Positions 10,101 to 56,899 of a DNA stretch of 56,929 bases are shown here, one piece after another. Location of the stretch: contig CAYWKC010000002.1 of assembly GCA_964459145.1 (NCBI GenBank), positions 1 through 56,929 on the forward strand. Direction: 5' to 3'. Source of the stretch: an uncultured Candidatus Saccharibacteria bacterium (GTDB taxonomy: Bacteria > Patescibacteriota > Minisyncoccia > Phycocordibacterales > UBA12079). A program made the position numbers and the translations under genes. A model generated the notes under the pieces. It had not been told where the DNA came from, did not search any database, and was given only the letters and a program-made list of their open reading frames with translations. The stretch's first letter is position 1. Each line of letters starts with the position of its first letter.

Positions 10101-10231
10101 GGAATTTGAATTTCAGGAGTAGATTCTTTTGTTATAGCAAATAGAGAAAACAAACCAGCCGAAATTAACCCTGCCATCAACAAAATTGTAAAACTTCTTC
10201 TTTTAATGAAAAAAATCCAAAATCTTTGCAT
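7139..10231 (-). CDS. RND-family efflux transporter permease (AcrB/HAE-like), 1030 aa
   Basis: 12-TM architecture with two large extracytoplasmic loops. Typical RND blocks are present (ALILAVGILVDSAIVVTE; GVIALAGIVVNNAIILID). Confidence 0.9.
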   Translation of the reverse strand: MQRFWIFFIKRRSFTILLMAGLISAGLFSLFAITKESTPEIQIPIAIVTTILPGASAVDTEKLITDKIENQLLNNLEAVDTVTSTSGQGISSVVVEFNAKADISSSIQKVKDEVDKVKSNLPTEAEDPIVSEINFADQPVLMLSISSELPVTKFIELTKKVEDELKTVNGVSKISKSGIPEREVRVLVDPSSLSKFKLNISNVVSAISQANSAIPAGEIEVQEIKYPLQFKGDIVNPSEIKDIVVSNVGGNVVYVRDVAFVSDGVSQSSSFSRISLNGEPSQQSVSLSVFKRRGGDITQVADAVKNKLAELQNGGILEGADVLVSVDMSKYLKDDLRNLSQSGLMTVFLVVLVLFLAIGWREALIAGLAIPFSFLIAFAGLYITGNTINFISLFALILAVGILVDSAIVVTEAMHTKIKRGMSGMESALAVIKEFYASLTSGTMTTIAAFFPLFFLSGIIGEFIAGIPYTLIFVLLASLFVALGIVPLLAMSVLKKNGNSNGKLLKIQTKYISLLQGWYKIKLNKIITNKKIQKIFLLSMAGALLLSLALPLSGLLKTTLFPSEDLDFIYLDVERQQGTILSETDLTMRAVEEILYDQPYIESFVTTTGSSNAFSYSGSSGGEKLGNITILLRDKRSQTSEEIVDLLRKQLVVIKTAKITVEQSSSGPPSGSAISLKFFGDDLDDLERVVTQAGDILKKISGTVDVSNSMNSNTTEFVLGINRSKLSEFGLTPVNVAQVLRTAVHGVTATTIKTGGEDIDVSVKLNLNTKDVNPDLSSVTTIDSIRQIEISVPKGSILLGSLIKVSMEKSNAFISHEGGERIATVSSNLSQGGNAVQINQEFQSKIKDGSLVLPQGVILKTGGENEDITKTFTEMLVALIAGLLLVIVVLILQFNSYRQTFFIVVGVLLSLIGVLVGLTITGNSFSFPSFIGVIALAGIVVNNAIILIDTMNVMRKENPEKSIEEIVVDSSLIRLRPILLTTITTVIGMIPLLFASAMWAPLSYAIIFGLSFATVVTLVLIPILYIRYTK

Positions 10232-10281
10232 AATATTTTTCTTATGAACAAAGCGAATTAGAAAAATATTACCCTGTTAAA

Positions 10282-10333
10282 TTGAATTTCTGTGAAATTC
10301 AAACCATTTAATTTTTTGTTAAAAAATTAAATG
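10282..10333 (-). other. Two adjacent perfect AT-rich hairpins in the adaptor-RND intercistronic spacer
   Basis: TTGAATTTC-TGT-GAAATTCAA (10282-10302) and CATTTAATTTTTT-GTT-AAAAAATTAAATG (10305-10333). Confidence 0.4.
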
Positions 10334-10372
10334 ATATTTAACATGGATCACCTAACCCACTTTGTGTATAAA

Positions 10373-12013
10373 TTACTTGACTACTTCCACTGCTTGCCCT
10401 TCTTGCAATCCTCTAGCATCCGTTATAATTTTCATATCAACACTGACTCCTTCTGAAATTATAATCTTTCCTCCAAGAATTGAACCCAACACCACAGGAT
10501 GTGCTACCAACTTGTTTTCTCTGTCAATTGTATAAACAACAGTTCTATCAGCTCCAATTTTAATAGCTGAAATTGGCACCGAAAAATCGACAATGACTTG
10601 GCCTTCTGATGAAGACCTTTGCAACAATAAAGACACTGATTGCCCATTGGTTAGAGAGATTTCTGAATCAGCCACACTAATTTCAACTTTTATTTTTTTA
10701 GTTTGAGGATCAAGAGAAGGGGCTATATTTTTAATTACCCCCTGCCAATTGGAACCAATGGCAACTGTTGAACCAACTTTTATGTCATTTCTATCTTCCT
10801 CGGTAATATAAGTAATTATTTCTAAAGTTTTATTATTAGCTAAAGTAACCACTGGAATAAAAGCAGAAACAAAGTCCCCTGACTCTAATTCAAGAGAGTT
10901 AATAGTCCCACTAATGGGAGCCCTAATGATAGTTTTTTCTAAACTGGCGTAAGCTGATTGTAAACCCGCTTCGGCCTGTTTTAATTGAGCTTCAGCAATA
11001 ATAACATCTTCACTCCTTCCTCCCGCTTCAGCTTGATCATAATTTAATTGAGCAATTTCTAAAGCTGATTCAGTATTATTCAAACCACTCTTCGTGGCAG
11101 AAAGAGTACTAACAGCTAAATTAATAGTTGTCCTAACTAAACTAATATTAGCTTTCCAAGTATTAATAGTTGTTTCAGATAAATTAGAATTAGGAGCTAA
11201 AGCATTAACAGCTAAAGCTAAATTATTGAGAAAAATTCTAATTGAATCAACATCACTACTGGCTTTGTCTAATTTTTCAATTAAATCACTACCCGCACTT
11301 AAGGTATCTAATTCTACATCCCAATTGTCTAACATTTTTTCAATAAGGAATCTCCCCCATTCAATATCAATTTCCAATTGTGAACTATACACCGAAAATA
11401 ACACTTGTGGATTATCCTCACGAGGATTTCTAAACATAATGTCTATTTTATTTCTCACAGAATCATCTATTTTAACAAAAGTATCATTTAACACATTGAT
11501 TGCTGAGATTTTAGTTTCGTTTAAGGTTTTTTGGGAATTATCTAAAGTGGTTTTTAAAATGGAAAGTTGTTCATCCCTCCCCCCCTTCTTTATTTTATCC
11601 AAACTGGCTTGAGCCACCTCTACATTAGCTTTAGCTTGAGTAACAGCTGACCTTTGCGACCAATTATTTATTTCTGCAATAACTTGGTCAACATAAACAA
11701 AATCGCCTAATTTTTTATACAAACCAATCACTTCACCTGACGTTTGAGAATAAATAGTCGCCGAAGATTGAGATTGAACTTCTCCCAACAGTGGCAAAGG
11801 GTCATTATTCAAAGATAAATCCCGAATTGACATTACACTGACTTGTCTAATATCTGAATCAATTCCATCCACGACGGTGCCTTGAATAATTATCAATTGT
11901 TGATAAAAAACAACAACTAAAATAGCGAAAATAAGCAAAATTAAAATCTTTTGGTTACGACGCAATTCTTTAATTTTAGTCATTTTATTTTGTAGGGTCT
12001 TTAAATTTAACAT
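10373..12013 (-). CDS. RND/ABC efflux periplasmic adaptor (membrane-fusion protein, HlyD-like) with an unusually long coiled-coil insert
   Basis: N-terminal TM anchor, a lipoyl-like half (SGEVIGLYKKLGDFVYVDQVIAEI ... APISGTINSLELESGDFV) and about 230 aa of helical repeats between the halves. Confidence 0.8.
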   Translation of the reverse strand: MLNLKTLQNKMTKIKELRRNQKILILLIFAILVVVFYQQLIIIQGTVVDGIDSDIRQVSVMSIRDLSLNNDPLPLLGEVQSQSSATIYSQTSGEVIGLYKKLGDFVYVDQVIAEINNWSQRSAVTQAKANVEVAQASLDKIKKGGRDEQLSILKTTLDNSQKTLNETKISAINVLNDTFVKIDDSVRNKIDIMFRNPREDNPQVLFSVYSSQLEIDIEWGRFLIEKMLDNWDVELDTLSAGSDLIEKLDKASSDVDSIRIFLNNLALAVNALAPNSNLSETTINTWKANISLVRTTINLAVSTLSATKSGLNNTESALEIAQLNYDQAEAGGRSEDVIIAEAQLKQAEAGLQSAYASLEKTIIRAPISGTINSLELESGDFVSAFIPVVTLANNKTLEIITYITEEDRNDIKVGSTVAIGSNWQGVIKNIAPSLDPQTKKIKVEISVADSEISLTNGQSVSLLLQRSSSEGQVIVDFSVPISAIKIGADRTVVYTIDRENKLVAHPVVLGSILGGKIIISEGVSVDMKIITDARGLQEGQAVEVVK

Positions 12014-12848: not shown

Positions 12849-13229
12849 ATGAAAGATTATGACAATTGGAATAAAAAGAAAAAAGAAGCAAACGAAGAAA
12901 TTCCTAGGCTATATACTGTGCGAGAAATATGGTGGTGTCGTTTTGGTGTTAACATAGGATTTGAACAGGACGGAAATGGAAAAGATTTTTTAAGACCCGC
13001 TGTTATAGTGCGTTCATTTGGCGCCAATATATGCTTAGTGATACCGTTAACAACGTCAAAACAGAAACATCCTTTACGCATAACTATTGGGAAGATTCAA
13101 GGAGAAAATGCAAGTGTGATACTTTCACAACTAAGAATATTTGACACCCGACGTCTTGTTGAAAAAATGGGGTTTCTTGATAAAAATAAATTCAATGAAT
13201 TAAGAAAAGCCGTTAGAAATTTATTCTAA
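12849..13229 (+). CDS. PemK/MazF-family endoribonuclease toxin with a lysine-rich N-terminal extension
   Basis: Alignable by eye to EndoA/MazF: REIWWCRFGVNIGFEQDGNGKDFLRPAVIV / VIPLTTSKQ / SVILSQLRIFDTRRL. Confidence 0.8.
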   Translation: MKDYDNWNKKKKEANEEIPRLYTVREIWWCRFGVNIGFEQDGNGKDFLRPAVIVRSFGANICLVIPLTTSKQKHPLRITIGKIQGENASVILSQLRIFDTRRLVEKMGFLDKNKFNELRKAVRNLF

Positions 13230-13238
13230 CGGCTTTTC
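13209..13238 (+). terminator. Rho-independent terminator overlapping the MazF-like stop codon
   Basis: GCCGTTAGAA-ATTTA-TTCTAACGGC (perfect 10-bp stem) followed by TTTTC. Confidence 0.7.
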
Positions 13239-13339
13239 TAAATCTTATCTCCTCCTTGCGGAGGTAAGGCCGAAGCCACTTGTACTTATATACTAACAAA
13301 GCCCAAAAAAAAGTCAACCCTACTATTCTTATAATTAGT

Positions 13340-13717
13340 ATGTCCAACCCAACAATAAATGAAAAAGTTATATATCCTGAATTATCCTACAAAATTACAG
13401 GTATTCTTTTTGCTGTCCATAATGAACTAGGTCAATATGCAAGAGAAAAACAATATGGTGATTTATTGGAAGAAAAGTTAAAAGAGACAAAATTACCTTA
13501 TAAAAGAGAGCTGATAGTCTCTAACTCTGGAAATATCTTAGATATTGTCATTAACAATCAAATAGTTCTAGAACTCAAAACAGTCAGAATAATCACAAAA
13601 GATAACTATCGACAAATACAGAACTATCTTCAAACAACTGGTATTAAATTGGGATTACTAGTGAATTTTAGAAGTAAATATTTAAAACCAATCCGCATAA
13701 TCCGTGTTGATTCATAA
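13340..13717 (+). CDS. GxxExxY-family protein (PD-(D/E)XK nuclease fold)
   Basis: ILFAVHNELGQYAREKQYGDLLEEKL and ILDIVINNQIVLELKTV...IQNYLQTTGIKLGLLVNF match the family pattern. Start moved to ATG 13340 (M21 of the tracked ORF). Confidence 0.75.
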   Translation: MSNPTINEKVIYPELSYKITGILFAVHNELGQYAREKQYGDLLEEKLKETKLPYKRELIVSNSGNILDIVINNQIVLELKTVRIITKDNYRQIQNYLQTTGIKLGLLVNFRSKYLKPIRIIRVDS

Positions 13718-45457: not shown

Positions 45458-45494
45458 GGAAAAGACCACCCTACAAGGTACCGTCCTTGTGGGG
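45458..45494 (-). terminator. Terminator-like hairpin spanning the NYN gene stop
   Basis: Minus strand: CCCCACAAGG-ACGGTA-CCTTGTAGGG (9 of 10 bp), then TGGTCTTTTCC. Locally GC-rich in an AT-rich context. Confidence 0.5.
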
Positions 45495-45992
45495 CCTTTT
45501 CTTTTTATATGAAAGCTTCTTATCCAAATTATTCATAAATCTTAAATAAGGTCGAACTATTTTGAACCTCAATAGAGCAGAGAATTTAAAATAATTTGGA
45601 ATCAAAACCACCTCTAATTTGTTCTTCTCTAATAAATATTTTATTAAACAATAAAAATCTCCATCACCACTTACAATAACAGCTTTGTTAAAATTTTCAT
45701 ATTCAATCATTGTCTGTAAAACTAATTCTGCATCAACATTTCCTTTTGTGGTTCCATCTTTATATTCAAGAGTAGGCTTAAAAATACAAATAAAACCGGC
45801 ATCTTGTAAAAACTTATATAAATCATTATTTCCTTCAACATAACCAACAAAAATGAAAGCTTTTTTTACTTGATATTTTTCTTTTAAATATATTTTAAAT
45901 CTAGCAAAATCTAATTTCCAACCCAGAGCTTGAATACTTAAATTCAAATTCTGACTATCTATAAAAGTATAATTGTTTTCCCCTTTTTTCAT
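45471..45992 (-). CDS. NYN-domain (LabA/DUF88-like, PIN-like RNase fold) protein
   Basis: NYTFIDSQNL...KAFIFVGY...GNVDAELVLQ...AVIVSGDGDFYCL. Confidence 0.8.
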   Translation of the reverse strand: MKKGENNYTFIDSQNLNLSIQALGWKLDFARFKIYLKEKYQVKKAFIFVGYVEGNNDLYKFLQDAGFICIFKPTLEYKDGTTKGNVDAELVLQTMIEYENFNKAVIVSGDGDFYCLIKYLLEKNKLEVVLIPNYFKFSALLRFKIVRPYLRFMNNLDKKLSYKKKRPHKDGTL

Positions 45993-45994: not shown

Positions 45995-47122
45995 TTAAAT
46001 TTTATCAATAGTCTCAGACCAAGATTTCTGGATAATATCCAAAACTTCCTCTTCAGTTTGGGGAATTTTTTTCAAACAGTCAGTGTAGGCTTTTTGTTGA
46101 AATTCTTCCAAGAGTTCTGGGTGTTGTTGAGCATTTATCATATTTAGAGAAAAACAATTTTGGTCACCCACATCACACAAAAAAGAATTATTGCTACTTA
46201 AAACCTCACCAACAATACCAACTTTAGTAGTCAAAATCGGGCAATGAGAGAAAATTGCCTCAACCAAAGATAAACCATAGCCTTCATAATTAGAAGTGGA
46301 AAGAAATAAATTAGCTGTTTTATAATAAGTAACCGGATTATCTGTCCATTTATTAAAAATAATATTTTCTTCTAAACCCAGTCTTCTGGCTTGCTTTCTC
46401 AAGGAGTTTTTAAAAGAACCTTTTCCAACTATAATTAACCCTGTTTTGGGAAAAATCTCTACAACTCTTACCATAGCATTAATTGCCATTGAAATATTTT
46501 TTTCCTTTTCCAAACGATTTACCATCACCATAATAAATTTAAATTGAGAATATCTTTGTTTTAAGTCAAAATCAGGTTCAGAAACTTGAATAAAAGTGGG
46601 GCTAACAAAAATCGGCAAAATTGTTACTTTTTCTTGTAATTTTTTAGACAAAGATAACTTTATTCTTTTGGAAACAACCCGAAGATGGTCAGCTTTGGGT
46701 AATAAAAATTTAGCCAACCAAGACCGAATTCGGTTAGCCCAAGAATGTTTGATAAAATAAGGACTAAAAATATCCGTATGAATTTGAAATTCCAGCTTAG
46801 CTTTTAATTTTTTGGCCACTTTCCAAGCAATCCACCCAGTTTCATAAGGGTCTTGAGCCGTGACTAAGTCAATATTTTTTAGTTGAACTCCTATTCTCTT
46901 TGCGTCTAAAATATAACGAAATTTATTAAGAGAATTAGTTGGATAAATAAAAACTCTTTCACTTATTTTTAGATTTTTTTTAATTCCGCCATCTTTAAGT
47001 TTTCTATTCAAAACAATAATATGTAAATTATCAGTCACTGTGCCATAATCAACCATCCTTCGCCGAACAGAGCTGTTCTCATCAAATATTTTCTTATCTA
47101 CGCTAATCATCAAAATATTCAT
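45995..47122 (-). CDS. Glycosyltransferase family 4
   Basis: VNRLEKEKN...STSNYEGYGLSLVEAIFSHCPILTTKVG. Confidence 0.8.
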   Translation of the reverse strand: MNILMISVDKKIFDENSSVRRRMVDYGTVTDNLHIIVLNRKLKDGGIKKNLKISERVFIYPTNSLNKFRYILDAKRIGVQLKNIDLVTAQDPYETGWIAWKVAKKLKAKLEFQIHTDIFSPYFIKHSWANRIRSWLAKFLLPKADHLRVVSKRIKLSLSKKLQEKVTILPIFVSPTFIQVSEPDFDLKQRYSQFKFIMVMVNRLEKEKNISMAINAMVRVVEIFPKTGLIIVGKGSFKNSLRKQARRLGLEENIIFNKWTDNPVTYYKTANLFLSTSNYEGYGLSLVEAIFSHCPILTTKVGIVGEVLSSNNSFLCDVGDQNCFSLNMINAQQHPELLEEFQQKAYTDCLKKIPQTEEEVLDIIQKSWSETIDKI

Positions 47123-47146
47123 ACTATTTTCATTATATCAAAAATT

Positions 47147-48334
47147 TTATTTTTTATATTTTTCCAAAGTTTCCTTTAGAGAATTTGCTACAATGAATCC
47201 CCCATCTTCTTCAAACTCTTTCTTGCTCTCCATTAATTCTGTATAAAGAATACCCTCTCTCAATAATTTTTCTAATTTATCTAAAGTATTTTGAATAGAA
47301 AATTGTTTTGATTTCTCGTAAGCGTTTTGAACAAGAGTTTGCCTAAAATTATCATTTTGAAAAATTTTTATAACAGCATTTTTAATGGCTTCTTTGTCAT
47401 TGGGTTCAACTAAAATCCCTTCTTGATTATTTTCAATTAATTCCGGTAACGAGCCCACTTTAGTAGCTAATACGGGCAAACCAAGCGCCATCGCTTCCAC
47501 TGTATCAAATGAAAAACTTTCCCAATTAGTGTTAAGAACAAAGATATCAGCTAGTTGTTTTTGTTTTAATAATTTATCTCGACTTAACTGCCCAACTAAA
47601 ATAACCTTATCCTCCAAATTAAGTTTTTCAATTGTTTGTTCTAATTCTTCTTTTTGCGGACCACTGCCAACTATTACCAACTTTGCTTCTGGAATTTCTT
47701 GTAAAATATCCGGTATTGTTTCAATTAATACTTTAAAACCTTTCCATGGCACCAACCTCCCTACCGACAACAACACCTTACTTTCGACTTTATGGACTCT
47801 TGGCTCGTTTATTTTTATCCCATTATAAATAACTTCAATTTTTTTAGATTCAATTCCCCAATTTAAGATAATACTCTTAAAATAGTGACTTGGAACAACA
47901 ACCTTTTCTGCCCGCTTAGCCACCCAAGTTTGAATTTTTTTGAAAAACTTAACAACAAAACCATAATTATTTTTTAAAGAAAAGATGTCCAAATTATCTT
48001 TAACTCTAAATCTTTGCACTCCTTGTTCCCAAGCGTAATCCCCAGCAATTCTAATAAAAAATCTCTTCTTTAAAAAAATATTAGCCAGCATGGTTGGCAA
48101 ACCAACACTCACGGGATCTTGAGCATAAATTACATCACAGCCCTTAATTCTCTTGATTATCTTAAAAAAATAAAACAAATGACGAATAATCTTGGGTAAA
48201 TGTCTAACTTCACCAAAAGACAACACCTCTACATCAATCCCCCGTTGGGGTAATTCATCAAAAAGCAGTTTTGAATAAGTGGCTGGACCACCAATATCAG
48301 GAGGATATATTCCAGTTGTAATTAAAATCTTCAT
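47147..48334 (-). CDS. Glycosyltransferase family 4
   Basis: PPDIGGPATY...VGRLVPWKGF...NTNWESFSFDTVEAMALGLPVLATKVGSLPE. Confidence 0.85.
   Translation of the reverse strand: MKILITTGIYPPDIGGPATYSKLLFDELPQRGIDVEVLSFGEVRHLPKIIRHLFYFFKIIKRIKGCDVIYAQDPVSVGLPTMLANIFLKKRFFIRIAGDYAWEQGVQRFRVKDNLDIFSLKNNYGFVVKFFKKIQTWVAKRAEKVVVPSHYFKSIILNWGIESKKIEVIYNGIKINEPRVHKVESKVLLSVGRLVPWKGFKVLIETIPDILQEIPEAKLVIVGSGPQKEELEQTIEKLNLEDKVILVGQLSRDKLLKQKQLADIFVLNTNWESFSFDTVEAMALGLPVLATKVGSLPELIENNQEGILVEPNDKEAIKNAVIKIFQNDNFRQTLVQNAYEKSKQFSIQNTLDKLEKLLREGILYTELMESKKEFEEDGGFIVANSLKETLEKYKK
47777..47803 (-). repeat. In-frame copy of the AAAGTC-type motif inside a GT4 gene
   Basis: Minus strand reads CCAAGAGTCCATAAAGTCGAAAGTAAG and encodes PRVHKVESK, just before VGRL. 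The 12-mer ACTTTATGGACT lies at 47787-47798. Confidence 0.6.
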
Positions 48335-49470
48335 ATCTTATGTGAAAAAAGTTTGTTCATAGCTTTAGCAATAACATCCCAATCGTATTTCTGGCGAACC
48401 ATTTTATAAGCATTGATAATTATTCTTTCTCTTAATAATTTATCTTCAAGAAATAATTTAACTTGCTCAGCGATAGATTCAGGGTCTTTAGTTCTACAAA
48501 AAAGACCCGTTTCTTTATCCTTCAAAAAATCTGGGATTCCACCAACTGGTGTAGCAATAACAGGAGTTTTCGTTGCCATCGCTTCCAAAAAAGAATTGCC
48601 CAAACCTTCAGAAAGAGACGGGCGAACAAAAATATCCGAAATTTTGAGATACTTGGGTAATTCTTCTTGATTAACAAAGCCCAAAAAATTAACCCGATTT
48701 TCTAACCCTCTTTCTTTTGAAATTTTTACCAATTTTTCCCTGTCTTCACCCTCTCCTAACAAAAGTAATTTAATATGAGATGGTAAATAAATTAAAGATT
48801 TAATCAAATCTTCTAAGCCATTTTTATAAGTCAACCGCCCAGTATGAATTAAAAAATTGTCCTTCTCTTGTTTTCCTAATTGATGTTTAAGTTCTTTTTG
48901 ATGCTTATCTGAAAATAATTGATTAAAATTTTTAACATCAACCCCATTAGGAATAATATCAATCGGACAAATTGCTCCCATTCTTTTTGCCCAACCAGCT
49001 AAATAGGAGCTAATACACTGGATTTTGTCAGCCCTTTTGAAAATATTTTTAAACTGTCCTTTAACAAACCTTGCCCGCTTTTGTATATGTTTGGGGCTAT
49101 CTCCTTCCTGTAAAGTCAAAATAAAAGGAATCTGTGGGTAACCCCGCTTGAATTTCGAAGCAGCTAAACCAGCATAACTTGCCATGATTGACCAAATTAA
49201 ATCATACTTATGTTGTTTCTTTAATTTTATGGCTATGCGATAACCATAAAATGCTAAGAGTAATTTATCAATCATTGGATTACCAATGCCCATCCGAAAA
49301 ACTTCAACGTTTCCAATTTTTTCTTGTTGAGGAAGTCGTTTGTCCATTTTCGCCGTCAAGAGGTGAAATTCTAAATCTGGGTTTCTCTCCGTAATTTCCT
49401 TAACAGCTACTTCTGCCCCACCGACAAAAGGGTGATAGGCCGTTGAAAATATAAGGATTTTTCTCTTCAT
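48331..49470 (-). CDS. Glycosyltransferase family 4
   Basis: HPFVGGAEVA...TGRLTYKNG...RPSLSEGLGNSFLEAMATKTPVIATPVGGIPD. Confidence 0.85.
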   Translation of the reverse strand: MKRKILIFSTAYHPFVGGAEVAVKEITERNPDLEFHLLTAKMDKRLPQQEKIGNVEVFRMGIGNPMIDKLLLAFYGYRIAIKLKKQHKYDLIWSIMASYAGLAASKFKRGYPQIPFILTLQEGDSPKHIQKRARFVKGQFKNIFKRADKIQCISSYLAGWAKRMGAICPIDIIPNGVDVKNFNQLFSDKHQKELKHQLGKQEKDNFLIHTGRLTYKNGLEDLIKSLIYLPSHIKLLLLGEGEDREKLVKISKERGLENRVNFLGFVNQEELPKYLKISDIFVRPSLSEGLGNSFLEAMATKTPVIATPVGGIPDFLKDKETGLFCRTKDPESIAEQVKLFLEDKLLRERIIINAYKMVRQKYDWDVIAKAMNKLFSHKI

Positions 49471-49512: not shown

Positions 49513-51006
49513 TTATTGATCTAGTTTACTGGCTAAAACAATTCCTGCTACAGCCAAAAGAACAACTCCTACCAATAAAACAGTCCATTTGTTAAACAGT
49601 GGTTTTTTTGATTTCAGCTTTAAAGGTTGCTCCTGGAGATTTTGAGATGAAGAGATATCTTGAATTTCCCAATCTTCATTGGAAACAATTTTCTCTGTGT
49701 CTTCTTCTACTTTTTCAGAAGAATAATCCTCTGGTTCTGTAATTTTTTGAATGGAAGCTACTTGATTGGTAGGAAGAATAACTATTTTTTCTTGAAGAGG
49801 AATATTCTGAGTTGTTTCTTCTTTCTTTTTATAAACAAAAGCGACGCTTCCATTCGGATATAGTAAACTAATTTGATTGGTTTGATTTGAAAAAAGACCT
49901 GTTGTTTTAGATGAAAGTTTTAAATATTTTTTTGGCAAAATAATAGTATCTCTTGGAAAAGTAAAATAATTATTATCTACCTTTAATCGCCACCAAGATA
50001 AGTTTAATTCATAAGAAGAAGGGTTGTGTAATTCAATGAATTGTTTATTGGGAAGAGAAAATTCCACGTTAGAAATTGTAATATTCGAGGGAAGAACATT
50101 AATTTTTAAGCGGTCACTCCCCACATATTTACCAGAAATAACTTGTAAAACCACCATATATTCTCCTGGGTATTGATAAGCATATAAAACTTTTTGTCCT
50201 TGAGCTTTTCCTCCGTCACCAAAAGTCCACTGATACTTTTCGTTTTCAAGAGGTTCATTCTTCAATCCACAGGAAATCCCTTCAAAAAGAAAATCAGCCC
50301 CTGTAATAGGCTTATCTTGGGGCAAAATAATAGTCCCAAAAATCTGCGGTTTTATTTTATAGGGAGTTACCACTGATGAAGGAGTCGTTTGAGATTGAAT
50401 TTCGCTTTGTGGCTCTTCAGGAGAATCTTCCTCTGAATCATTCTCTTCACCACCATTCTCGGGTTGAGAACTTAAATAATTGGCTTCTCCTGGAGTAGGA
50501 GCGGAAGCCAACCAAACCCCATTAATTTTTTGAAGAGAATTACCATCACCATTGGCTCCCCAGTCTGATAAATAACTGACAGTATCAATGTCAATTAAAT
50601 CAGCATTTCTAATAACAAAGGCTTCCCCTGTGTTAGAAAGTGAAAAAGCAGAAGCAAAAACTAGACTTGAAAAATTTGGATAATCTATCTTAAATTTTTC
50701 AAAATTATCAACAATTAACGCATAAGCCCCGCTTGGTAATAAAACAGAACCTCCTTCTGGAAGTGATTCAATTTTGTGATTGGTCTTAGCTTCAAAAAAT
50801 TTCCACCCTAACAAATTAATTTCTTCTGTTGCCATATTATGAATTTCAACCCATTCTCTTCCGCCATCACTTCCTTCGGCTAAGTCATACATTATTTCCG
50901 TTATTTCAATTTGCGCAAAGATGATAAAGGGAGAGAAAAACAAAACATAAAAAATGGCTGTCAAAGACAGCCATTTTTTATGTTTCTCCTCATCATTTAT
51001 TTTCAT
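49513..51006 (-). CDS. Membrane-anchored surface protein: lamin-tail-like domain, acidic linker, PKD-like domain, second lamin-tail-like domain, C-terminal TM
   Basis: - N-terminal hydrophobic segment WLSLTAIFYVLFFSPFIIFA.
- ITEIMYD...REWVEIHN...LLGWKF, and FIELHNPSSYELNLSWWRL (LTD-like).
- YQWTFGDG...YAYQYPGEYMVVLQV (PKD-like).
- C-terminal WTVLLVGVVLLAVAGIVLA. Confidence 0.7.
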   Translation of the reverse strand: MKINDEEKHKKWLSLTAIFYVLFFSPFIIFAQIEITEIMYDLAEGSDGGREWVEIHNMATEEINLLGWKFFEAKTNHKIESLPEGGSVLLPSGAYALIVDNFEKFKIDYPNFSSLVFASAFSLSNTGEAFVIRNADLIDIDTVSYLSDWGANGDGNSLQKINGVWLASAPTPGEANYLSSQPENGGEENDSEEDSPEEPQSEIQSQTTPSSVVTPYKIKPQIFGTIILPQDKPITGADFLFEGISCGLKNEPLENEKYQWTFGDGGKAQGQKVLYAYQYPGEYMVVLQVISGKYVGSDRLKINVLPSNITISNVEFSLPNKQFIELHNPSSYELNLSWWRLKVDNNYFTFPRDTIILPKKYLKLSSKTTGLFSNQTNQISLLYPNGSVAFVYKKKEETTQNIPLQEKIVILPTNQVASIQKITEPEDYSSEKVEEDTEKIVSNEDWEIQDISSSQNLQEQPLKLKSKKPLFNKWTVLLVGVVLLAVAGIVLASKLDQ

Positions 51007-52717
51007 CTAGTTTTTTAACGTAAAGCATTTTTTCTAAAGTATCTTTAGATATTTCTTTTACATTTTTCTCCTCATTTTTTTTATTCTCGTGTTTTCTCTG
51101 AACGACAGACACTGGTTGAACTTCTAACCCAACGGTCTGTTTATTAAAAGATTTTTTTAATTCTTCTCTGCCATTATTTTGGACATTTTGAATGGCGTTA
51201 GATAAAGCTTTTCTTAATTCAATTCTTTTATCTTGATTATTTTCTAAATTGTTTTCCTTTTTTAAAGTAACATTATCAATTTTTTTATAATCTTTCCTGT
51301 TCCGTAAATCGTTTAAACTCATCCGAGGAGTTTTTTTAGAATAATTTCTTTGAAACGATTGTGGTTGTAGTCTAATTTTTTCACTTCCACTAAATTGTTT
51401 AGCGGGCTGTTTATTTTGCACAATATCTGGTGTATACCAATCAATTATATTTTTCTCTACCTCGTCTCTTAATTGAGCAAATTGTTTTTGTGAAGATTCT
51501 ATTATTTCTTGCTTAAAAGACATTGTTGGTTTAGCAATAGGAGGTAAAGTTCTCGCAGAAAAAGGGGTCGACCCAATACCATCTATCATTAATTTTAAAT
51601 AAACCTGAGCAAAATCTAAATTAACAATATCATCGGCTGTAAAGTCCGGCGAAAATTCTTTTTCAAAAATCTCCGCATCATAAGAACCTAAACGAAAAAT
51701 AATCATCGTCCCAACGTTACCAAATACAGCGGCTCTCACTTCGTCCTCCATTTGTTCTATATATTGATGAGCAATAGTAAGATTTAGTTTATATTTCCTC
51801 GCTTCCGATAAAATATTCGTAAAGGATTCATTAGCGAAGGACTGAAACTCATCCACGAAGAAATAAAAATTAGGCAATTTATTTAGTTCGTCTTGAGAGA
51901 CATCCGCTCGAGACATTGCTCCCAAATATATTTTGGTAATTAGCATACTTCCTAAAAGATTAGCAGCATCCTCCCCAATCTGACCTTTAGATAAATTAAT
52001 TATCAGAATTTTTTTCTTGTCCATTATTTCCCTAACATCAAAAGAAGATTTTTCTTGTCCAATAATATTTCTCACAATAGGATTGGAAACGAATTGCCCG
52101 ACCTTATTTTGAATAGCTGCTCCAGCTTCCTGCATATATCTTTCACCATATTTTGCAAATTCATCCATCCAAAAAGATTTAACTGAGGCATCACTAACAT
52201 TATCTACTACTTTCTTACGATAATTTTTATCAGAGAGCATTCTATTAACCCCCAACAAAGTTGCTCCTGGAAACTCCAATAAAGCTAATAAAATATTATT
52301 CAAGATGTATTCCATTCGAGCCGACCAAGCATCCACCCAGATTTTCTTAAAAGCACTCATCAAACCACTAGCCACTAAATGTCTTTTATCTTCCCCCACA
52401 TCTTCCATTACATTAAATGAGATAGGATTATTTAAATCAAAGGGCGCAAAATAGATAACATCATCAATTCTATGTTCTGGAACATAATCTAATAACAAGT
52501 CAGCTGTTTTGCCATGAGGATCCATAAAAGCTATTCCATTTCCGTTTTTGATATCTTGCACCGCCATATTTTCAAGCATAGTTGACTTCCCCATACCAGT
52601 TTTCCCAATGGTATAAACATGCCTCGTCCGATCTGAGGCCTTAATACCAAAACGCACTCGCTTATTCCTTCGATCAGTTTCAGCAAAGTATGTAATTGGA
52701 TTTTTTTCTTCCATCAT
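50993..52717 (-). CDS. VirD4/TraD/TrwB-like (type IV coupling-protein-like) P-loop ATPase without TM segments; K/E/N-rich tail
   Basis: - Walker A GKTGMGKST and Walker B FYFFVDEFQSF.
- LTIAHQY, and VGTMIIFRLG.
- No hydrophobic N-terminus.
- The last 150 aa or so are low complexity.
- 14-nt overlap with the downstream LTD gene. Confidence 0.65.
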   Translation of the reverse strand: MMEEKNPITYFAETDRRNKRVRFGIKASDRTRHVYTIGKTGMGKSTMLENMAVQDIKNGNGIAFMDPHGKTADLLLDYVPEHRIDDVIYFAPFDLNNPISFNVMEDVGEDKRHLVASGLMSAFKKIWVDAWSARMEYILNNILLALLEFPGATLLGVNRMLSDKNYRKKVVDNVSDASVKSFWMDEFAKYGERYMQEAGAAIQNKVGQFVSNPIVRNIIGQEKSSFDVREIMDKKKILIINLSKGQIGEDAANLLGSMLITKIYLGAMSRADVSQDELNKLPNFYFFVDEFQSFANESFTNILSEARKYKLNLTIAHQYIEQMEDEVRAAVFGNVGTMIIFRLGSYDAEIFEKEFSPDFTADDIVNLDFAQVYLKLMIDGIGSTPFSARTLPPIAKPTMSFKQEIIESSQKQFAQLRDEVEKNIIDWYTPDIVQNKQPAKQFSGSEKIRLQPQSFQRNYSKKTPRMSLNDLRNRKDYKKIDNVTLKKENNLENNQDKRIELRKALSNAIQNVQNNGREELKKSFNKQTVGLEVQPVSVVQRKHENKKNEEKNVKEISKDTLEKMLYVKKLDENK

Positions 52718-52736: not shown

Positions 52737-53933
52737 TTAATCTGTTAGAAGAGCCCCCGTTGTATATCTATTGCTGGCAGACCATAACATCCAACTATCT
52801 AATCCCGCATCATACACGGCCTGAATCTGGGCACGAACTTCTTTTGCATTATAATCAGCCCCTAAATCAAAATCCTGAAGCCACGGCCTTAATTTATTAG
52901 GGTCAAGACCTGCATTTTTAGCTTTAGCCACAGCTTTATCCATTGAATATTTAACTACTTCGTAAGGATGAGAAGCAGGATTGGCATAACCAATAAAACT
53001 AGTTGGATAATGTGAGGGATAAACCATCGGGGCCACAAAATCAAAATATGGCAGAGTATATTCCAAAATTTGACCAATGTTTAAATCGTCATTGTTTGTT
53101 GTTACCATTCCAAATAAATCAGCTGATAAAACTACCCCCGTATCGCCTAATTCTGCATCTACATAGATAAAAAATTCTCTTAATATCTTCGCTTTCCCTG
53201 TGTCTACATCGGCAAAAACCCTTTCTTCACTAAAAGGATAATAAATTTGAAACATATCTCCATCTGAAGGAAAACGAATATAATCAAAATTAATTTCATC
53301 AAAACCAAGATTGTATGAATATCTAGCTAAATCAATAACATAATTCCAAACCTCAATTGAACCAGCATCCAACCAGCTAATCCCTTTGCGATCTTTCCAA
53401 ATATCTCCTCCTTCCTTTTTCTTAACCGCCAAATCTGGACGCTGTTGAACAAAATGGGGGTCTTGAAAAACAGAAATTCTACCAATCACATAAATATTTT
53501 TACTATGTAAGTATTCCAAAAACTCTCTCGCATCGGGGATTCTATTTTCTGAAGCCCCATATTTTGACAAATTTTCATCTTGAACCTCAAAGGCAATTTT
53601 CCCTGTGTAATCTTTGATGTCTATCACAACCGAGTTGAGTTCTGTGTTGTCAATAAGATTTACTAAATTATTTCTAATATTTTTTGTTCCCGCTACCCAG
53701 CTAGTCATATAAATAGCTTTGACTTGTGGGGGTAATGATACATGAGTAGCTACTTCAACTTCCTCCTCCATAGCAGTGACTTTCATTACCAATGCCTCAT
53801 TCAAGAAACTAATTGTTGAAACTGAATGGTAAACAGACAAAAAGGAAAAACCAAAAAAACAGAGGAAGCACCCCCCGACTATTTTTTTCAAAATTTTTAA
53901 TTTATTATTCTCCTTTAATTGAACAATCGCCAT
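52737..53933 (-). CDS. Putative glycoside hydrolase (DUF4015/GHL-type TIM barrel), signal-anchored
   Basis: N-terminal anchor GGCFLCFFGFSFLSV. AIYMTSW, VVIDIKD, GFDEINFDYIRFPSDG and PMVYPSHY are typical of this family. Confidence 0.55.
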   Translation of the reverse strand: MAIVQLKENNKLKILKKIVGGCFLCFFGFSFLSVYHSVSTISFLNEALVMKVTAMEEEVEVATHVSLPPQVKAIYMTSWVAGTKNIRNNLVNLIDNTELNSVVIDIKDYTGKIAFEVQDENLSKYGASENRIPDAREFLEYLHSKNIYVIGRISVFQDPHFVQQRPDLAVKKKEGGDIWKDRKGISWLDAGSIEVWNYVIDLARYSYNLGFDEINFDYIRFPSDGDMFQIYYPFSEERVFADVDTGKAKILREFFIYVDAELGDTGVVLSADLFGMVTTNNDDLNIGQILEYTLPYFDFVAPMVYPSHYPTSFIGYANPASHPYEVVKYSMDKAVAKAKNAGLDPNKLRPWLQDFDLGADYNAKEVRAQIQAVYDAGLDSWMLWSASNRYTTGALLTD

Positions 53934-54126
53934 TTTCTATATAGATATTATCTTTTAAATCTTTGTCTTGCTTGCTTGTCAATAAACTCATTTTTCGAGA
54001 AAAATAAAGCGACTGGATAAGGATTATTAAACCCAATAAACTATAAATCAAATTTTCCCAAGAACTAGGAAACCCCAAAAAAGGCATTATTATTAATAAA
54101 AAACCGAGAAATGCTATTTTTTTCAT
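53905..54126 (-). CDS. Small membrane protein (2 TM), hypothetical
   Basis: KIAFLGFLLIIMPFLGFP and LIYSLLGLIILIQSLYF. Fills the rsmI-GHL gap on the same strand. Confidence 0.45.
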   Translation of the reverse strand: MKKIAFLGFLLIIMPFLGFPSSWENLIYSLLGLIILIQSLYFSRKMSLLTSKQDKDLKDNIYIENGDCSIKGE

Positions 54127-54141: not shown

Positions 54142-54837
54142 TTATTTTTTCTGAATAACAAAAACAAATTCTCCTTTTATTTTTTCAGGATTTTTATCAA
54201 AAAAATATAAAATTTCTGAAATAGTTCCTGAAATAATTTCTTCATAAATTTTAGTTAGCTCTCTAGCAATGGTTATTTTTCTTTTCTCTTGACTATTTTC
54301 TTCTAATTGGTTTTTTAGTGCTTCTAACGTTTTTAAAACTCGGTGAGGTGATTCATAAAAAACTACCGTTCTCTCAGAATTAACAATTTCTTTCAACAAA
54401 GTTTGCTTTCCCTTTTTGTGTGGGAGAAAACCTAGAAACAAAAACTGATCAGCTGAGAAACCACTAATTGATAAAGCCGTAACAAGAGCACTTGCCCCTG
54501 GGATAGAAATAATTTTGACAGATTTATCAAATTTTTTTCTTACCTCTGCTACCAATTGAAAACCTGGATCGGAAATAGTTGGAGTGCCTGCATCTGAAAC
54601 TAAAGCTAAATCTTTGTCTTGCCCTAATAAATCTAAAACTTTATCCACTTTATATTTTCCACTAAAAGAATGATAAGAAATTGTGGGAGTTTCAATCTTA
54701 TGCTTATCTAAAAGTTTTCTAGTAACCCTAGTATCCTCACACAATACAAAATCTACTTCTTTAAGAATTCTTAAAGCCCTGAGTGTGACATCCTCCAAAT
54801 TACCTATCGGAGTGGCGACTATATATAAATTAGACAT
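54142..54837 (-). CDS. rsmI: 16S rRNA (cytidine1402-2'-O)-methyltransferase
   Basis: LYIVATPIGNLEDVTLRAL..L..VDFVLCEDTR, SDAGTPTISDPG, IPGASA. Confidence 0.9.
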   Translation of the reverse strand: MSNLYIVATPIGNLEDVTLRALRILKEVDFVLCEDTRVTRKLLDKHKIETPTISYHSFSGKYKVDKVLDLLGQDKDLALVSDAGTPTISDPGFQLVAEVRKKFDKSVKIISIPGASALVTALSISGFSADQFLFLGFLPHKKGKQTLLKEIVNSERTVVFYESPHRVLKTLEALKNQLEENSQEKRKITIARELTKIYEEIISGTISEILYFFDKNPEKIKGEFVFVIQKK

Positions 54838-54880
54838 AATATTAAATTACTTCACAACAATCTTTGGTTCACACTGTTAG

Positions 54881-54952
54881 AGCCGAAGGTGAGAATTGAA
54901 CTCACGACCTACGCGTTACGAGTGCGTTGCTCTACCACTGAGCTACCCCGGC
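54881..54952 (-). tRNA. tRNA-Thr (anticodon CGT)
   Basis: Folded by hand: GCCGGGG / TA / GCTC-AGTGGTA-GAGC / A / ACGCA-CT[CGT]AA-CGCGT / T-arm GTGAG-TTCAATT-CTCAC / CTTCGGC-T. Two G.U pairs in the acceptor stem and one A.C mismatch in the anticodon stem. No encoded CCA. Confidence 0.8.
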
Positions 54953-54959
54953 CTACCTG

Positions 54960-55032
54960 AGCCCGAGGGCGGGTTTGAACCGCCGACTTACGCCTTACCA
55001 TGGCGTTACTCTACCAACTGAGTTACTCGGGC
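54960..55032 (-). tRNA. tRNA-Thr (anticodon GGT)
   Basis: GCCCGAG / TA / ACTC-AGTTGGTA-GAGT / A / ACGCC-AT[GGT]AA-GGCGT / AAGTC / GGCGG-TTCAAAC-CCGCC / CTCGGGC-T. Perfect cloverleaf. No CCA. Confidence 0.9.
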
Positions 55033-55070
55033 CTAATAAATTATATCTTATTAGATTTTAGAGTTTTTTG

Positions 55071-55096
55071 CAAAACAAAAAACCCTCTCGGGTTTA
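55071..55096 (-). terminator. Rho-independent terminator after tRNA-Asp
   Basis: Minus strand: AAACCC-GAGA-GGGTTT followed by TTTGTTTTG. Confidence 0.6.
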
Positions 55097-55112
55097 TGTT
55101 TTTCTAAAAAAG

Positions 55113-55185
55113 CGGACCCGACCGGATTTGAACCGGCGATCTATCGCGTGACAGGCGATTGTGTTAACCCCTACACCACGGGTCC
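55113..55185 (-). tRNA. tRNA-Asp (anticodon GTC)
   Basis: GGACCCG / TG / GTGT-AGGGGTTA-ACAC / A / ATCGC-CT[GTC]AC-GCGAT / AGATC / GCCGG-TTCAAAT-CCGGT / CGGGTCC-G. No CCA. Confidence 0.9.
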
Positions 55186-55880
55186 ATTTTTTGATTTCTT
55201 ATTTTTAAAAAATTCTTCAAATCGTTTTTTCTTTCTTAATAAAAGCAAATTCGTTTTAAGATTATCATACATTAAATGATATAACAATAATGAGTCGTTA
55301 ATGCTAAACTTCAAACAATATGCATTGCTATTTTTCCTTTTGTAAATTCCACCCCCCTTTATTCCTCTTTTCTGCAAACTTTTACATAAATCTTTAAGAA
55401 ATTCATTTGATGCAGAGGTAAAAGCTGTTTGTATAGTATAGGTATTTTTAAATCGTTTCCTCTGGATAAACCCAGTCCACACATTCCCGTCTCCATCAAA
55501 ATAACCTCGGATAAACTTTCCGAAATACTTTTTAGGAATATTAGGAAGTTTTAGTCGATAAGTTTTTCTTTCTTTAACGCCTAATTTCGCCAAATCCTCA
55601 CAAATTTCATTGCTCCCTATCTGTAATCGATAAAATGTACTTTTATCTTTCTTGTGAATTCTTTTGCTTATTTTATGTTCAGAGTCAAGCACAAGACGAA
55701 TACTATATAACAGATCTTTATCTTTTATTTGAATGGCAAAATAACTAGCCCCTCTTTTCCCAGTGAATACATATCCATCCGCCATAAAAAACCTAAAACA
55801 TAGGCCATTTCACTTGACCATTTCTTAAAAAATTTTTTATTAACTTGTTTAAAGATTGGCATCCTATCATTATACTTCAT
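55171..55880 (-). pseudogene. Two-motif LAGLIDADG homing endonuclease; first motif split by a 1-nt frameshift in a T6 run. The tracked ORF 55171-55785 is the downstream part.
   Basis: An upstream frame from ATG 55880 reads MKYNDRMPIFKQVNKKFFKKWSSEMAYVLGF. After the T6 run (plus-strand A6, 55786-55791) the tracked frame continues MADGYVFTGKRG. One extra T would join them as AYVLGFFMADGYVF (motif 1). Motif 2 is FIRGYFDGDGNVW. The stop lies 15 nt inside tRNA-Asp. Confidence 0.65.
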
Positions 55881-55922
55881 GACAGGACATGACACCAACT
55901 AATATTGTTGATACAAATTTTG

Positions 55923-55996
55923 TGTCGATGGTTGGAGTTGAACCAACGATCTGGCGCGTATGAGACGCCCGCTTTAACCAACTAAGCTACATCGAC
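55923..55996 (-). tRNA. tRNA with anticodon CAT, elongator type (Met, or Ile2 if lysidine-modified)
   Basis: GTCGATG / TA / GCTT-AGTTGGTTA-AAGC / G / GGCGT-CT[CAT]AC-GCGCC / AGATC / GTTGG-TTCAACT-CCAAC / CATCGAC-A. The G1-C72 pair argues against an initiator. Confidence 0.85.
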
Positions 55997-56677
55997 GTTA
56001 TTTAATTCTTTTGTTGCTTTTAAAAGACCTAATATTTTATACTTTAGCTCTGAACTTTTTCTTACTTTTAAAGATAAAACTCCGTAATAATTTTCATAAT
56101 TCTCGTACACTTTTTTTTGCTTCATTTTTAACAATACAGGATTCCCAAACTGTTCAATAGGTAATTCTAACAAATTAGACCAAAATTTCAAAACTTTATT
56201 AATGCGAGGCTTATGCATCTCATTTATAAAGATCCTAGGCATAAATTCTTCTTTTTTTATACCGAAGACAACATTAAACCACTTATACATAAACAAAATT
56301 GCTTCTTGATCCGAATTAACAAAAGCTAAGGAACTTTTATCTGATTTTACTCCCTCACCCCAATATAAACCGAGACCCGTCATAAACAAATCTCTTTTTG
56401 ACATTTTTTTAATAACTTCAACCCCTGATTTTTCATAAAATTTAATCTTTTCTAACTTTTTTTTGCGATTCATATTTGCCCCGATCATTCTTCCGTTATG
56501 ACCAGCTTCAATAGCGTTTCTCTTCAAAATCTCTTTTTGTTTTTTTGTTAAAGTAATCTCCTGGCACCATGAACTAACAGACCCTTTTGAGACATTCAAT
56601 TTTTTAACAATTGTATTAATACTCCAACCTTCCCTTCTTAATTGTTGCGCTTTTATTTTTTCTTGAAACTTAGCCAT
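55982..56677 (-). CDS. HTH + LAGLIDADG-like (single-motif) endonuclease-type protein
   Basis: N-terminal REGWSINTIVKKLNVSKGSVSSW (HTH-like). LFMTGLGLYWGEGVKSDKSSLAFVNSD resembles a LAGLIDADG helix-plus-strand block. The stop lies 15 nt inside tRNA-CAT. Confidence 0.5.
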   Translation of the reverse strand: MAKFQEKIKAQQLRREGWSINTIVKKLNVSKGSVSSWCQEITLTKKQKEILKRNAIEAGHNGRMIGANMNRKKKLEKIKFYEKSGVEVIKKMSKRDLFMTGLGLYWGEGVKSDKSSLAFVNSDQEAILFMYKWFNVVFGIKKEEFMPRIFINEMHKPRINKVLKFWSNLLELPIEQFGNPVLLKMKQKKVYENYENYYGVLSLKVRKSSELKYKILGLLKATKELNNVDVA

Positions 56678-56790
56678 TTCACTATATATTATAATATATG
56701 GTAAGTCTTATTACAAGGATAAAAACTTGTCTTTTCTAATTCATCTGTTAATATCTTAAATAGTTAAATTGTCCTTATCTGTTGTTACCA

Positions 56791-56823
56791 AACACCGCCA
56801 GCGGTTTAGCTGGCGGTGTTTTT
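56791..56823 (-). terminator. Strong hairpin downstream of tRNA-fMet
   Basis: AACACCGCCAGC-GGTTTA-GCTGGCGGTGTT (perfect 12-bp stem). T/A runs on both sides, so it could act bidirectionally. Confidence 0.65.
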
Positions 56824-56828
56824 ACTTG

Positions 56829-56899
56829 TTGCGGGAGCCTGATTCGAACAGACAACTGGAGGTTATGAGCCTCCCGAGTTACCCTTACTCCATCCCGCG
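56829..56899 (-). tRNA. Initiator tRNA-fMet (anticodon CAT)
   Basis: CGCGGGA / TG / GAGT-AAGGGTA-ACTC / G / GGAGG-CT[CAT]AA-CCTCC / AGTT / GTCTG-TTCGAAT-CAGGC / TCCCGCA-A. The C1xA72 mismatch and CGCGGG...CCCGCA acceptor match bacterial initiators. Confidence 0.85.

Follow-up and report, generated by a model that had tools for sequence, protein, structure and literature searches.

Type IV coupling proteins (T4CPs) such as VirD4, TrwB, TraD, DotL and Cagbeta are P-loop ATPases of the FtsK-HerA superfamily, and their nucleotide-binding domain carries an inserted all-alpha domain. They have a variable C-terminal extension that ends in a conserved short motif; TraD uses this motif to bind TraM. 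Here we examine an ATPase with the same traits, and the gene next to it, in a 57-kb stretch of DNA (contig CAYWKC010000002.1, about 30% GC), which we call the window. Both genes lie on the minus strand. The first encodes a soluble, T4CP-like (VirD4/TrwB-type) P-loop ATPase of 574 aa (50993-52717), and the second a surface-anchored protein of 497 aa (49513-51006) in which two lamin tail domains (LTDs) bracket a PKD-like module. A first-pass annotation had taken the two for a minimal two-part module, a surface protein that binds DNA or another ligand coupled to a cytoplasmic translocase-like ATPase. We think this is only partly right. The domain calls, the soluble ATPase and the recurrent neighbour all stand, but an obligate, physically coupled machine for DNA acquisition does not. 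Our own reading, to which we give a probability of roughly 0.6, is that the ATPase is a soluble housekeeping motor derived from a T4CP, with partners encoded elsewhere, and that the LTD gene is an optional, attenuated adhesin or S-layer-like gene that heads a glycan cluster.

Patescibacteria account for much of the diversity of bacteria and rely on other cells, and the routes by which macromolecules cross their envelope have yet to be worked out. Orphan VirD4-like genes in these bacteria are already known, having been reported in 2025. Quinonero-Coronel et al. (2025; PMC12102498) counted 5,713 VirD4-type homologues, spread over 2,918 of 3,035 Patescibacteria genomes, of which just 148 lay close to virB4, and stated that exaptation "cannot be ruled out". 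According to the same survey most Patescibacteria have a chromosomal type IV secretion system (T4SS) and about two dispersed VirD4-like genes per genome; the role of those that lie away from secretion systems, in nearly every genome, was left open (PMC12102498). Southlakia has a T4SS locus without a recognizable coupling protein (PMC10633639). The window ATPase is like the orphans of that survey in lying away from virB4, as such genes do in almost every Patescibacteria genome. What the survey does not describe is the split of the family into short forms without a transmembrane (TM) helix and long forms with TM helix and DUF8128, the synteny with DUF4015 and family 4 glycosyltransferase (GT4) genes, the LTD neighbour, or the hairpin that we describe below; the word "lamin" has 0 occurrences in it (PMC12102498). 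The literature that we searched held nothing relevant on the lamin tail domain in Patescibacteria, on DUF8128 or on DUF4015. As far as that literature shows, the short TM-less subfamily, its synteny, its facultative LTD neighbour and the embedded covarying hairpin are new.

The case for a T4CP origin rests on profiles and structure. The listing of open reading frames (ORFs) confirms both genes and their strand, and all motifs that had been quoted for them are in the translations: GKTGMGKST, FYFFVDEF, LTIAHQY, REWVEIHN, FIELHN and EENDSEEDSPEE. Walker A (GKTGMGKST) occupies residues 38-46 of the ATPase, Walker B (FYFFVDEF) 283-290 and AHQY 316-319. The two Walker motifs are invariant across the 36 homologues of our ATPase alignment, and to judge by them the enzyme is catalytically intact. 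Pfam assigns TrwB_AAD_bind to residues 27-343 (2.3e-10, 40.4 bits, cut-off 20.5) and also TraG-D_C (2.3e-6, 28 bits, cut-off 22), which upholds the earlier VirD4/TraD-like classification. DUF87/HerA reaches 20.4 bits, under its cut-off of 23.2, and Pfam gives no FtsK_SpoIIIE or gamma-domain match in the protein. NCBIfam yields only fragmentary sub-threshold matches to TraD, CedD and TrbC. A sequence search of the PDB found a marginal TrwB match around Walker A (E 0.33 with the single sequence, 5e-4 with a profile), so the classification rests on Pfam and Foldseek. The AlphaFold2 (AF2) monomer model is confident over the core (residues 1-430, 51428-52717, minus strand), with pLDDT mostly >90. 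It shows a RecA-like fold with an inserted all-alpha domain, seven helices at about 112-233 (pLDDT >90), lying between strand 87-90 and strand 237-241. Foldseek ranks DotL first (6sz9_A, 1.2e-10), then HerA (9x1m and 4d2i, about 3e-10 to 8e-10), and next Cagbeta (8dol) and TrwB (1e9s) at about 1e-8; it aligns the inserted domain to those of TrwB, DotL and Cagbeta. From sequence and model together we infer that the ATPase is T4CP-derived and T4CP-like in its working.

It nevertheless lacks two features that define T4CPs, an anchor in the membrane and a genetic link to a T4SS or relaxase. Unlike the T4CPs it has no N-terminal transmembrane domain, and its Walker A motif begins at residue 38. Its maximum hydropathy over 19 residues is 1.49, and no segment reaching our TM-grade threshold of 1.6 occurs in it or in its best 120 homologues, so the absence of TM helices noted at first pass extends to its relatives. 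Sequence similarity to TrwB is confined to the Walker regions. HerA and FtsK have the superfamily fold in common with it, but HerA differs in its HAS barrel, for which there is no counterpart here (only about 30 residues, three short strands, precede the P-loop in alignment and model), and no NurA, Sir2 or DUF4297 partner is adjacent; FtsK differs in the motor and gamma domains for which Pfam gave no match. As for linkage, our Pfam scan covered every other sizeable ORF in the window and found no VirB4, VirB6, relaxase, pilin, PilB/PilC or ComEC, in agreement with the first-pass annotation. We extended this to a synteny sample of 80 GTDB species loci that carry the ATPase, with ORFs called and clustered and flanks of +/-10 kb, and no VirB4, VirB6, ComEC, T4SS or relaxase gene was found there either.

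The C-terminal tail (residues 431-574, 50993-51427, minus strand) is variable, disordered and rich in K, N, E and Q. It had been described as a K/E/N-rich tail of about 150 aa, and this is accurate: among its 144 residues are K 25, N 18, E 13 and Q 12, and pLDDT is <50 over most of it. AF2 places short helices at 495-514 and 558-565. These coincide with two islands of conservation, around 495-505 (RMSLNDL) and around 555-566 (EISKDTLEKML), in which L501, L505, L561 and L565 are invariant in the alignment. The end motif, E[VI]PEDVLRxLL in the wider family, is kept in loci with and without the LTD gene, so the ligand of the terminal island is not the LTD protein.

The ATPase belongs to a very large family. 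We found >8000 homologous proteins, the best 120 at 59-88% identity, with the similarity concentrated in the first ~430 residues; an exhaustive search of representatives clustered at 50% identity returned 21,643 relatives at E<=1e-3 and 5,752 at E<=1e-30. Above about 57% identity every representative is short, its ATPase part beginning within residues 1-40. An N-terminal extension of 300-460 aa, made up of a TM helix and PF26449 (DUF8128), is seen in about 44 of the 150 representatives listed, all of them at <=57% identity. Because all the closer representatives are short, the TM-less state is a property of the Paceibacteria subfamily. A split gene that supplies the missing TM helix and DUF8128 can be rejected, since no DUF8128-like ORF lies in the window or within the flanks of the 80 loci. 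Two unrelated contigs with the long form (L093, 5636-13423; L094, 5658-13087) have a context in common: two DUF8128 paralogues a few genes apart flank a sigma70_r4/HARE-HTH protein, near DUF5663 and large unannotated proteins and with SecDF downstream. This context gave no functional clue past the second paralogue and the sigma/HARE-HTH gene.

Several observations show the ATPase to be a chromosomal, single-copy, vertically inherited gene that is far more conserved than T4CPs of mobile elements. There is one copy per locus in the 80 loci. Compared with the respective window proteins, the ATPase has a median identity of 71.5%, the neighbouring RsmI of 54.5%, DUF4015 of 53.3%, the glycosyltransferase of 46.6% and the LTD protein of 35.9%. 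The named homologues of both the ATPase and the LTD protein all come from Patescibacteria, Parcubacteria or Paceibacteria metagenome-assembled genomes. All plasmid matches are at <60% identity; the best plasmid-borne homologue is 39.8% identical and is itself an orphan on a non-mobilizable plasmid, and for these reasons we reject a mobile-element origin.

The LTD protein looks like a surface array. Its layout is a signal peptide at about 1-32 (FAQ|IE), LTD1 at about 33-175, an acidic, S,T,P-rich linker at 176-218, the PKD-like module at 219-305, LTD2 at 306-395, a disordered stalk at 396-470 and a C-terminal TM helix at 473-495 (49522-49590), followed by the cytoplasmic end SKLDQ. Pfam, hydropathy and AF2 all bear out this arrangement, which the earlier reading had proposed. 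LTD (PF00932) scores 3.5e-22 and 79.3 bits (cut-off 34.3) over two stretches, and PKD_4 scores 4.7e-9 and 36.6 bits (cut-off 27), both above the Pfam cut-offs. Hydropathy finds the N-terminal hydrophobic segment at 13-31, just ahead of FAQ|IE, and the C-terminal one at 475-493. The AF2 model has three beta-sandwich modules (33-168 and 310-392 among them), two disordered linkers and the terminal helix. Foldseek matches it to the Ig-like arrays of phage Hoc, Bap and the S-layer proteins Sap and SbsB, and to the PKD domains of ColG (4tn9 and 4jrw, TMt 0.73-0.79 for the PKD module). With bacterial LTD surface proteins and these arrays it shares a signal peptide, tandem Ig-like beta-sandwiches, flexible linkers and a surface anchor. 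It differs from them in having no SLH, LPXTG or enzymatic domain (nuclease, metallo-beta-lactamase) and in being anchored by a single C-terminal TM helix.

That it should handle DNA, as the first-pass annotation supposed, finds no backing in its domains or its model. It contains no domain for nuclease activity or DNA handling, no nuclease or DNA-binding fold is among its Foldseek matches, and no competence-type Pfam domain (ComEA HhH, ComEC, EndA-like) occurs in it or in the window. We found 493 homologues, and in the matches seen the family occurs in Patescibacteria only. The 36 that we aligned are 34-60% identical with a conserved architecture, and the M(K/R)IN start is conserved; one homologue was named "S-layer-like protein array protein" by its depositor. 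Many homologues have, after the TM helix and a basic stretch, an extreme C-terminal motif [DE][DE][FYI]x[IV][IL][ED] (for example ADEYEIIE, AEDFKIIE or SDDIEIID, as in L086, 3661-4803), which may serve as a signal for docking or sorting in the cytoplasm. This motif is missing from the window protein and from its closest relatives, which end in KLD[QEK]. Once the signal peptide is cleaved, only about 5 residues (SKLDQ) of the window protein are cytoplasmic, which leaves very little through which it could be physically coupled to a soluble ATPase.

The gene order tells much the same story. In the window the ATPase lies 19 nt downstream of a gene for a membrane-anchored DUF4015 protein, a putative glycoside-hydrolase TIM-barrel with an N-terminal hydrophobic segment (52737-53933, minus strand; Pfam 4.5e-100). 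Further upstream come a 73-aa small membrane protein with two TM segments, seen as two hydrophobic stretches (53905-54126, minus strand), an RsmI-like TP_methylase of the 16S rRNA methyltransferase family (54142-54837, minus strand; TP_methylase is also found in related loci) and a tRNA cluster with LAGLIDADG-type ORFs. Downstream of the LTD gene are three GT4-type glycosyltransferase genes (45995-49470, minus strand; Glycos_transf_1 / Glyco_transf_4 in Pfam), the first genes of the surface-glycan region. The consensus order of the family is RsmI, small TM protein, DUF4015, a pilin or spacer, the ATPase, optionally LTD, three GT4 genes and GtrA. No neighbour of the ATPase is more constant than DUF4015, which 55 of 80 loci have upstream on the same strand. 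The small membrane protein (cluster 4) occurs in 43 of 80, typically directly before DUF4015. RsmI (cluster 7) is in 25 of 80 loci and within the conserved order though unrelated in function. Because the block also holds this unrelated rRNA methyltransferase, much of the adjacency around the ATPase is inherited synteny. GT4 genes (cluster 0) are found at positions +1 to +3 in 43-47 loci, directly after the ATPase in most relatives. In about 10 of the 80 (L007, L010, L012, L013, L021, L031, L055, L056, L058 and L078) the interval from DUF4015 to the ATPase contains, as gene -1 or -2, a type IV pilin-like gene (N-terminus ...GFTLIELLVVIAIIGILS...). That the small ORFs in this position are mostly pilins can be rejected on the same count; the rest look spurious in a spacer of 300-600 nt.

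The LTD gene is an optional member of this block. It is found in 20 of 80 loci, always at +1 and on the same strand, with gaps of -121 to +196 nt. The +1 slot is held by a GT4 glycosyltransferase in 47 of 80 loci, and in about 74% of informative loci it holds a GT4 or other sugar gene with no LTD. A reverse sample of 10 LTD-family members (35-60% identity), looked up from the LTD side, placed 8 of 10 immediately downstream of the ATPase and one, L086, about 1.3 kb from it; DUF4015 was present in every such locus whose upstream flank reached far enough. The remaining locus, L090, was the one locus returned by a scan of metagenome contigs with the LTD protein. There GT-type genes follow the LTD gene, a TrpR/YerC-like gene lies upstream, and no ATPase is seen in the 800 nt available. 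The L090 spacer upstream of LTD (520-810) contains direct repeats with a unit of about 25 nt (ACTGTAAAAAGTT...-like; translation "LTVKN/TVNCKK"). On a neighbour-joining tree of the ATPase, which is poorly resolved, LTD-positive loci are scattered over several deep branches, a distribution that fits an old association with repeated loss. LTD is thus a recurrent neighbour, at +1 in all 20 GTDB loci in which it was found, but a facultative one, as these are 20 of 80. The pairing is not obligate, and the link is not exclusive either, since the ATPase is more constantly tied to DUF4015 and to the GT4-GtrA genes. The LTD gene is fast-evolving and dispensable while the ATPase is constant.

A terminator-like RNA hairpin lies between the cistrons (50943-50985, minus strand), found by terminator scan and supported by folding and covariation. 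Its sequence is AAACAUAAAAAAUGGCUGUC-UUU-GACAGCCAUUUUUUAUGUUU, then UGUUUUUCU: a stem of 20 bp without mismatches, closed by a 3-nt loop and trailed by U-rich sequence. An A-tract and a U-tract lie on either side of a GC-containing core (UGGCUGUC/GACAGCCA). Counted from the stop codon of the ATPase the hairpin starts 7 nt further on, and in the LTD ORF it takes up codons 8-21, which are signal-peptide codons; that it truly lies inside coding sequence follows from the M(K/R)IN start, which the LTD family conserves. No inverted repeat of the window is stronger, and it folds with a minimum free energy of -31.8 kcal/mol (z -6.1). The same element recurs in L087, L088, L089 and L091, whose LTD proteins are 46-60% identical to that of the window, with stems of 27 bp in L088, 28 bp in L087, about 20 bp in L091 and 14 bp with G-U pairs in L089. 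Over the five sequences 97% of cells pair, and 9 of 20 pairs have changed on both sides. None of 500 shuffles matches this, and slid registers pair at 44-54%. The compensatory substitutions change LTD amino acids. L001 and L092 do not have the hairpin; L002, L037 and L086 have different terminator-like hairpins just after the ATPase stop.

Two other readings of this inverted repeat can be rejected. It is unique in the window and so is not a repeated element there. It is not a DNA-level palindrome, for in L089, through the G-U pairs, the sense strand folds at -22.9 kcal/mol (z -3.6) versus -8.5 (z -0.4) for the antisense strand. This strand asymmetry is why we read it as an RNA element. A stable stem-loop with a U-tract, on the sense strand, after a stop codon and conserved, is what is expected of a terminator or attenuator. 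Its likeness to intrinsic terminators, attenuators and RNase III substrates lies in the GC-containing stem, the 3-nt loop, the U-tract and the upstream A-tract that extends the helix, and to intrinsic terminators also in its position a few nt past a stop codon. It differs from intrinsic terminators in lying inside the signal-peptide codons of the next gene, where it is kept by substitutions that alter the protein, and in its stems of 20-28 bp, longer than typical. Our inference as to mechanism is that it acts as an attenuator; an RNase III site is the alternative reading. On either reading the output of LTD would be uncoupled from that of the ATPase, and the hairpin points to attenuated and not stoichiometric co-expression. 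Whatever its mechanism, a covarying terminator-like hairpin written in signal-peptide codons is a compact example of dual coding.

We can now state our preferred scenario in full. The two genes would be neighbours in a vertically inherited chromosomal block of Paceibacteria (Parcubacteria) and would form no obligate two-part machine. The ATPase would be the short subfamily of a Patescibacteria-wide family, housekeeping-grade, and by homology it probably assembles into a ring NTPase that drives a polymer along, be it nucleic acid or unfolded protein. The conserved helix that ends its disordered tail may bring it to a membrane partner whose gene lies elsewhere, and the obvious candidate is the dispersed chromosomal T4SS described for Patescibacteria. 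The LTD protein would be a secreted, C-terminally anchored array of three Ig-like modules on flexible acidic and S,T,P-rich stalks, a fast-evolving and dispensable adhesin or S-layer-like surface protein that may be glycosylated by products of the adjoining glycan cluster. An intrinsic-terminator-like or RNase III-type hairpin would fall within the first 60 nt of its coding sequence. Because the hairpin lies in the coding sequence, a full-length LTD mRNA needs read-through, probably when a ribosome at the ATPase stop or the LTD start covers the 5' arm. The outcome would be attenuated, conditional expression of LTD relative to the ATPase. In Paceibacteria, then, one of the VirD4-like ATPases whose role has been left open is a soluble protein that exceeds its housekeeping neighbour RsmI in conservation and has a fixed place in an envelope-biogenesis block. 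These traits narrow the search for its partner to the tail helix, DUF4015 and the small membrane protein.

Some facts do not sit easily with this scenario. The ATPase and LTD ORFs overlap by 14 nt (51006-50993+1), as the first-pass annotation had stressed, and the overlap is kept in the closest relatives. The position of LTD is strikingly specific, never elsewhere within the flanks of the 80 loci. L086 keeps the two genes in one neighbourhood although its downstream genes are not GT. The conserved [DE][DE][FY]x[IV][IL][ED] end of many LTD homologues could dock a cytoplasmic partner.

These are the facts that anyone defending a two-component module would use. In that explanation the LTD protein captures DNA or another ligand at the surface, possibly from a host cell, and the T4CP-like translocase powers import or exchange independently of a T4SS. 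Adjacency is indeed near-exclusive seen from the LTD side, at 20 of 20 in the GTDB loci, and 9 of 10 LTD-first loci have the ATPase adjacent or close by. In about 10 of 80 loci the gene directly upstream of the ATPase encodes a type IV pilin, and T4CPs are DNA-dependent translocases. Yet LTD is missing from its slot in about three quarters of species while the ATPase is still highly conserved and keeps its tail motif. Neither in the window nor in the 80 loci is a ComEC- or VirB6-type channel protein linked, the LTD protein has no nuclease or DNA-binding fold match, and its window version shows about 5 cytoplasmic residues and no C-terminal motif. A terminator-like hairpin separates the cistrons, and L090 has LTD beside GT genes without an ATPase in the upstream sequence available. 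Given that most Patescibacteria carry a chromosomal T4SS (PMC12102498), the condition that the first-pass annotation itself named as refuting, a T4SS elsewhere in the genome, may hold here. A surface protein that is accessory and not core argues against a minimal DNA-uptake machine, and we consider this explanation unlikely.

A second possibility gives the conserved block itself a function. The soluble T4CP-derived motor would, together with DUF4015, the small membrane protein and the glycan, pilin or surface genes, export or assemble an envelope component. The candidate products are a surface glycoprotein, a polysaccharide or a pilus-like fibre, with LTD as an optional cargo or accessory. The gene order invites this idea: DUF4015 upstream in 55 of 80, the small membrane protein before it, three GT4 genes and GtrA after the ATPase, an equivalent order in the LTD-first loci, a pilin at -1 in about 10 loci, and a window that is one large surface-glycan region. 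But RsmI and tRNA genes are also in the block, so the order is at least partly historical. We know of no T4CP-family ATPase that drives glycan or Sec-type protein export, and the ordinary signal peptide of the LTD protein implies export by Sec. The long-form relatives sit in a different context, with the second DUF8128 paralogue, sigma70_r4/HARE-HTH and SecDF but without DUF4015 or GT genes. All of this makes the idea decidedly unlikely in our view.

In a bolder scheme, just as doubtful to us as the second, a T4CP-derived motor of Paceibacteria would have lost its anchor and DUF8128 and would drive, from the cytoplasm, a T4SS-independent translocation across the envelope specific to the Candidate Phyla Radiation. 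Its conserved C-terminal helix would dock it to a pilin component, to the small membrane protein or to DUF4015. Outside the cell the LTD-PKD-LTD protein would serve as an optional receptor, for instance to capture DNA or a host surface, and a ribosome-sensitive terminator in its signal-peptide codons would gate its expression.

The last alternative, that the ATPase is a HerA/mad8-type anti-phage or conflict system or a degraded mobile element with LTD as an unrelated passenger, has PADLOC matches to mad8 (2.1e-13) and HerA (2e-10), Foldseek matches to the DndH C-domain and defence HerA complexes, and closest relatives outside the Candidate Phyla Radiation that are orphans on non-mobilizable plasmids beside transposases or CHAT/TPR proteins, but it is scarcely credible and we reject the defence reading on conservation and synteny, because the ATPase is single-copy, strongly conserved and fixed in a chromosomal syntenic block, the opposite of defence-island behaviour, with no adjacent nuclease, Sir2 or methylase partner and no integrase or relaxase in the window, and because the PADLOC matches amount to generic P-loop/T4CP similarity.

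In the rest of the window, Pfam scans show that positions of about 700 to 49470 form a single large surface-glycan region of about 49 kb. It contains Bac_transf, PAP2, Wzm/Wzt, many GT1/2/4/8/9/11 genes, GLF, DegT, epimerases, GtrA and deacetylases. The window further holds RelA/SpoT, an AcrB-HlyD pair, MazF and an NYN protein by Pfam, and no integrase was found in these scans. The NYN-domain (RNase-like) gene (45471-45992, minus strand, 5e-13) lies amid the GT4 genes downstream of the LTD gene. An AcrB/AcrD/AcrF-family RND transporter (1030 aa, 3.8e-182) adjoins an HlyD-type membrane-fusion protein (546 aa) at 7139-12013 on the minus strand. This is a diderm-style efflux pair in a Patescibacteria genome that is presumed monoderm. 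Between the RND pump and the Wzt ABC transporter, at 12849-13717 on the plus strand, are a MazF/PemK toxin gene (1.2e-14), for which no antitoxin was identified, and then a PD-(D/E)XK nuclease-family gene (7.7e-22).

Over the whole window Rfam and ARAGORN find five tRNAs and nothing else. The genes (Thr-CGU, Thr-GGU, Asp, Met and Met) lie at its other end, 54880-56899 on the minus strand, interleaved with two ORFs. The ORF at 55982-56677 has a weak HTH_23 match only and overlaps tRNA-Met. The ORF at 55171-55785, of the LAGLIDADG type (LAGLIDADG_3 2.9e-11), shares about 15 nt with the 5' end of tRNA-Asp. LAGLIDADG_3 ORFs occur at the equivalent place, upstream of RsmI, in L089 and L092.

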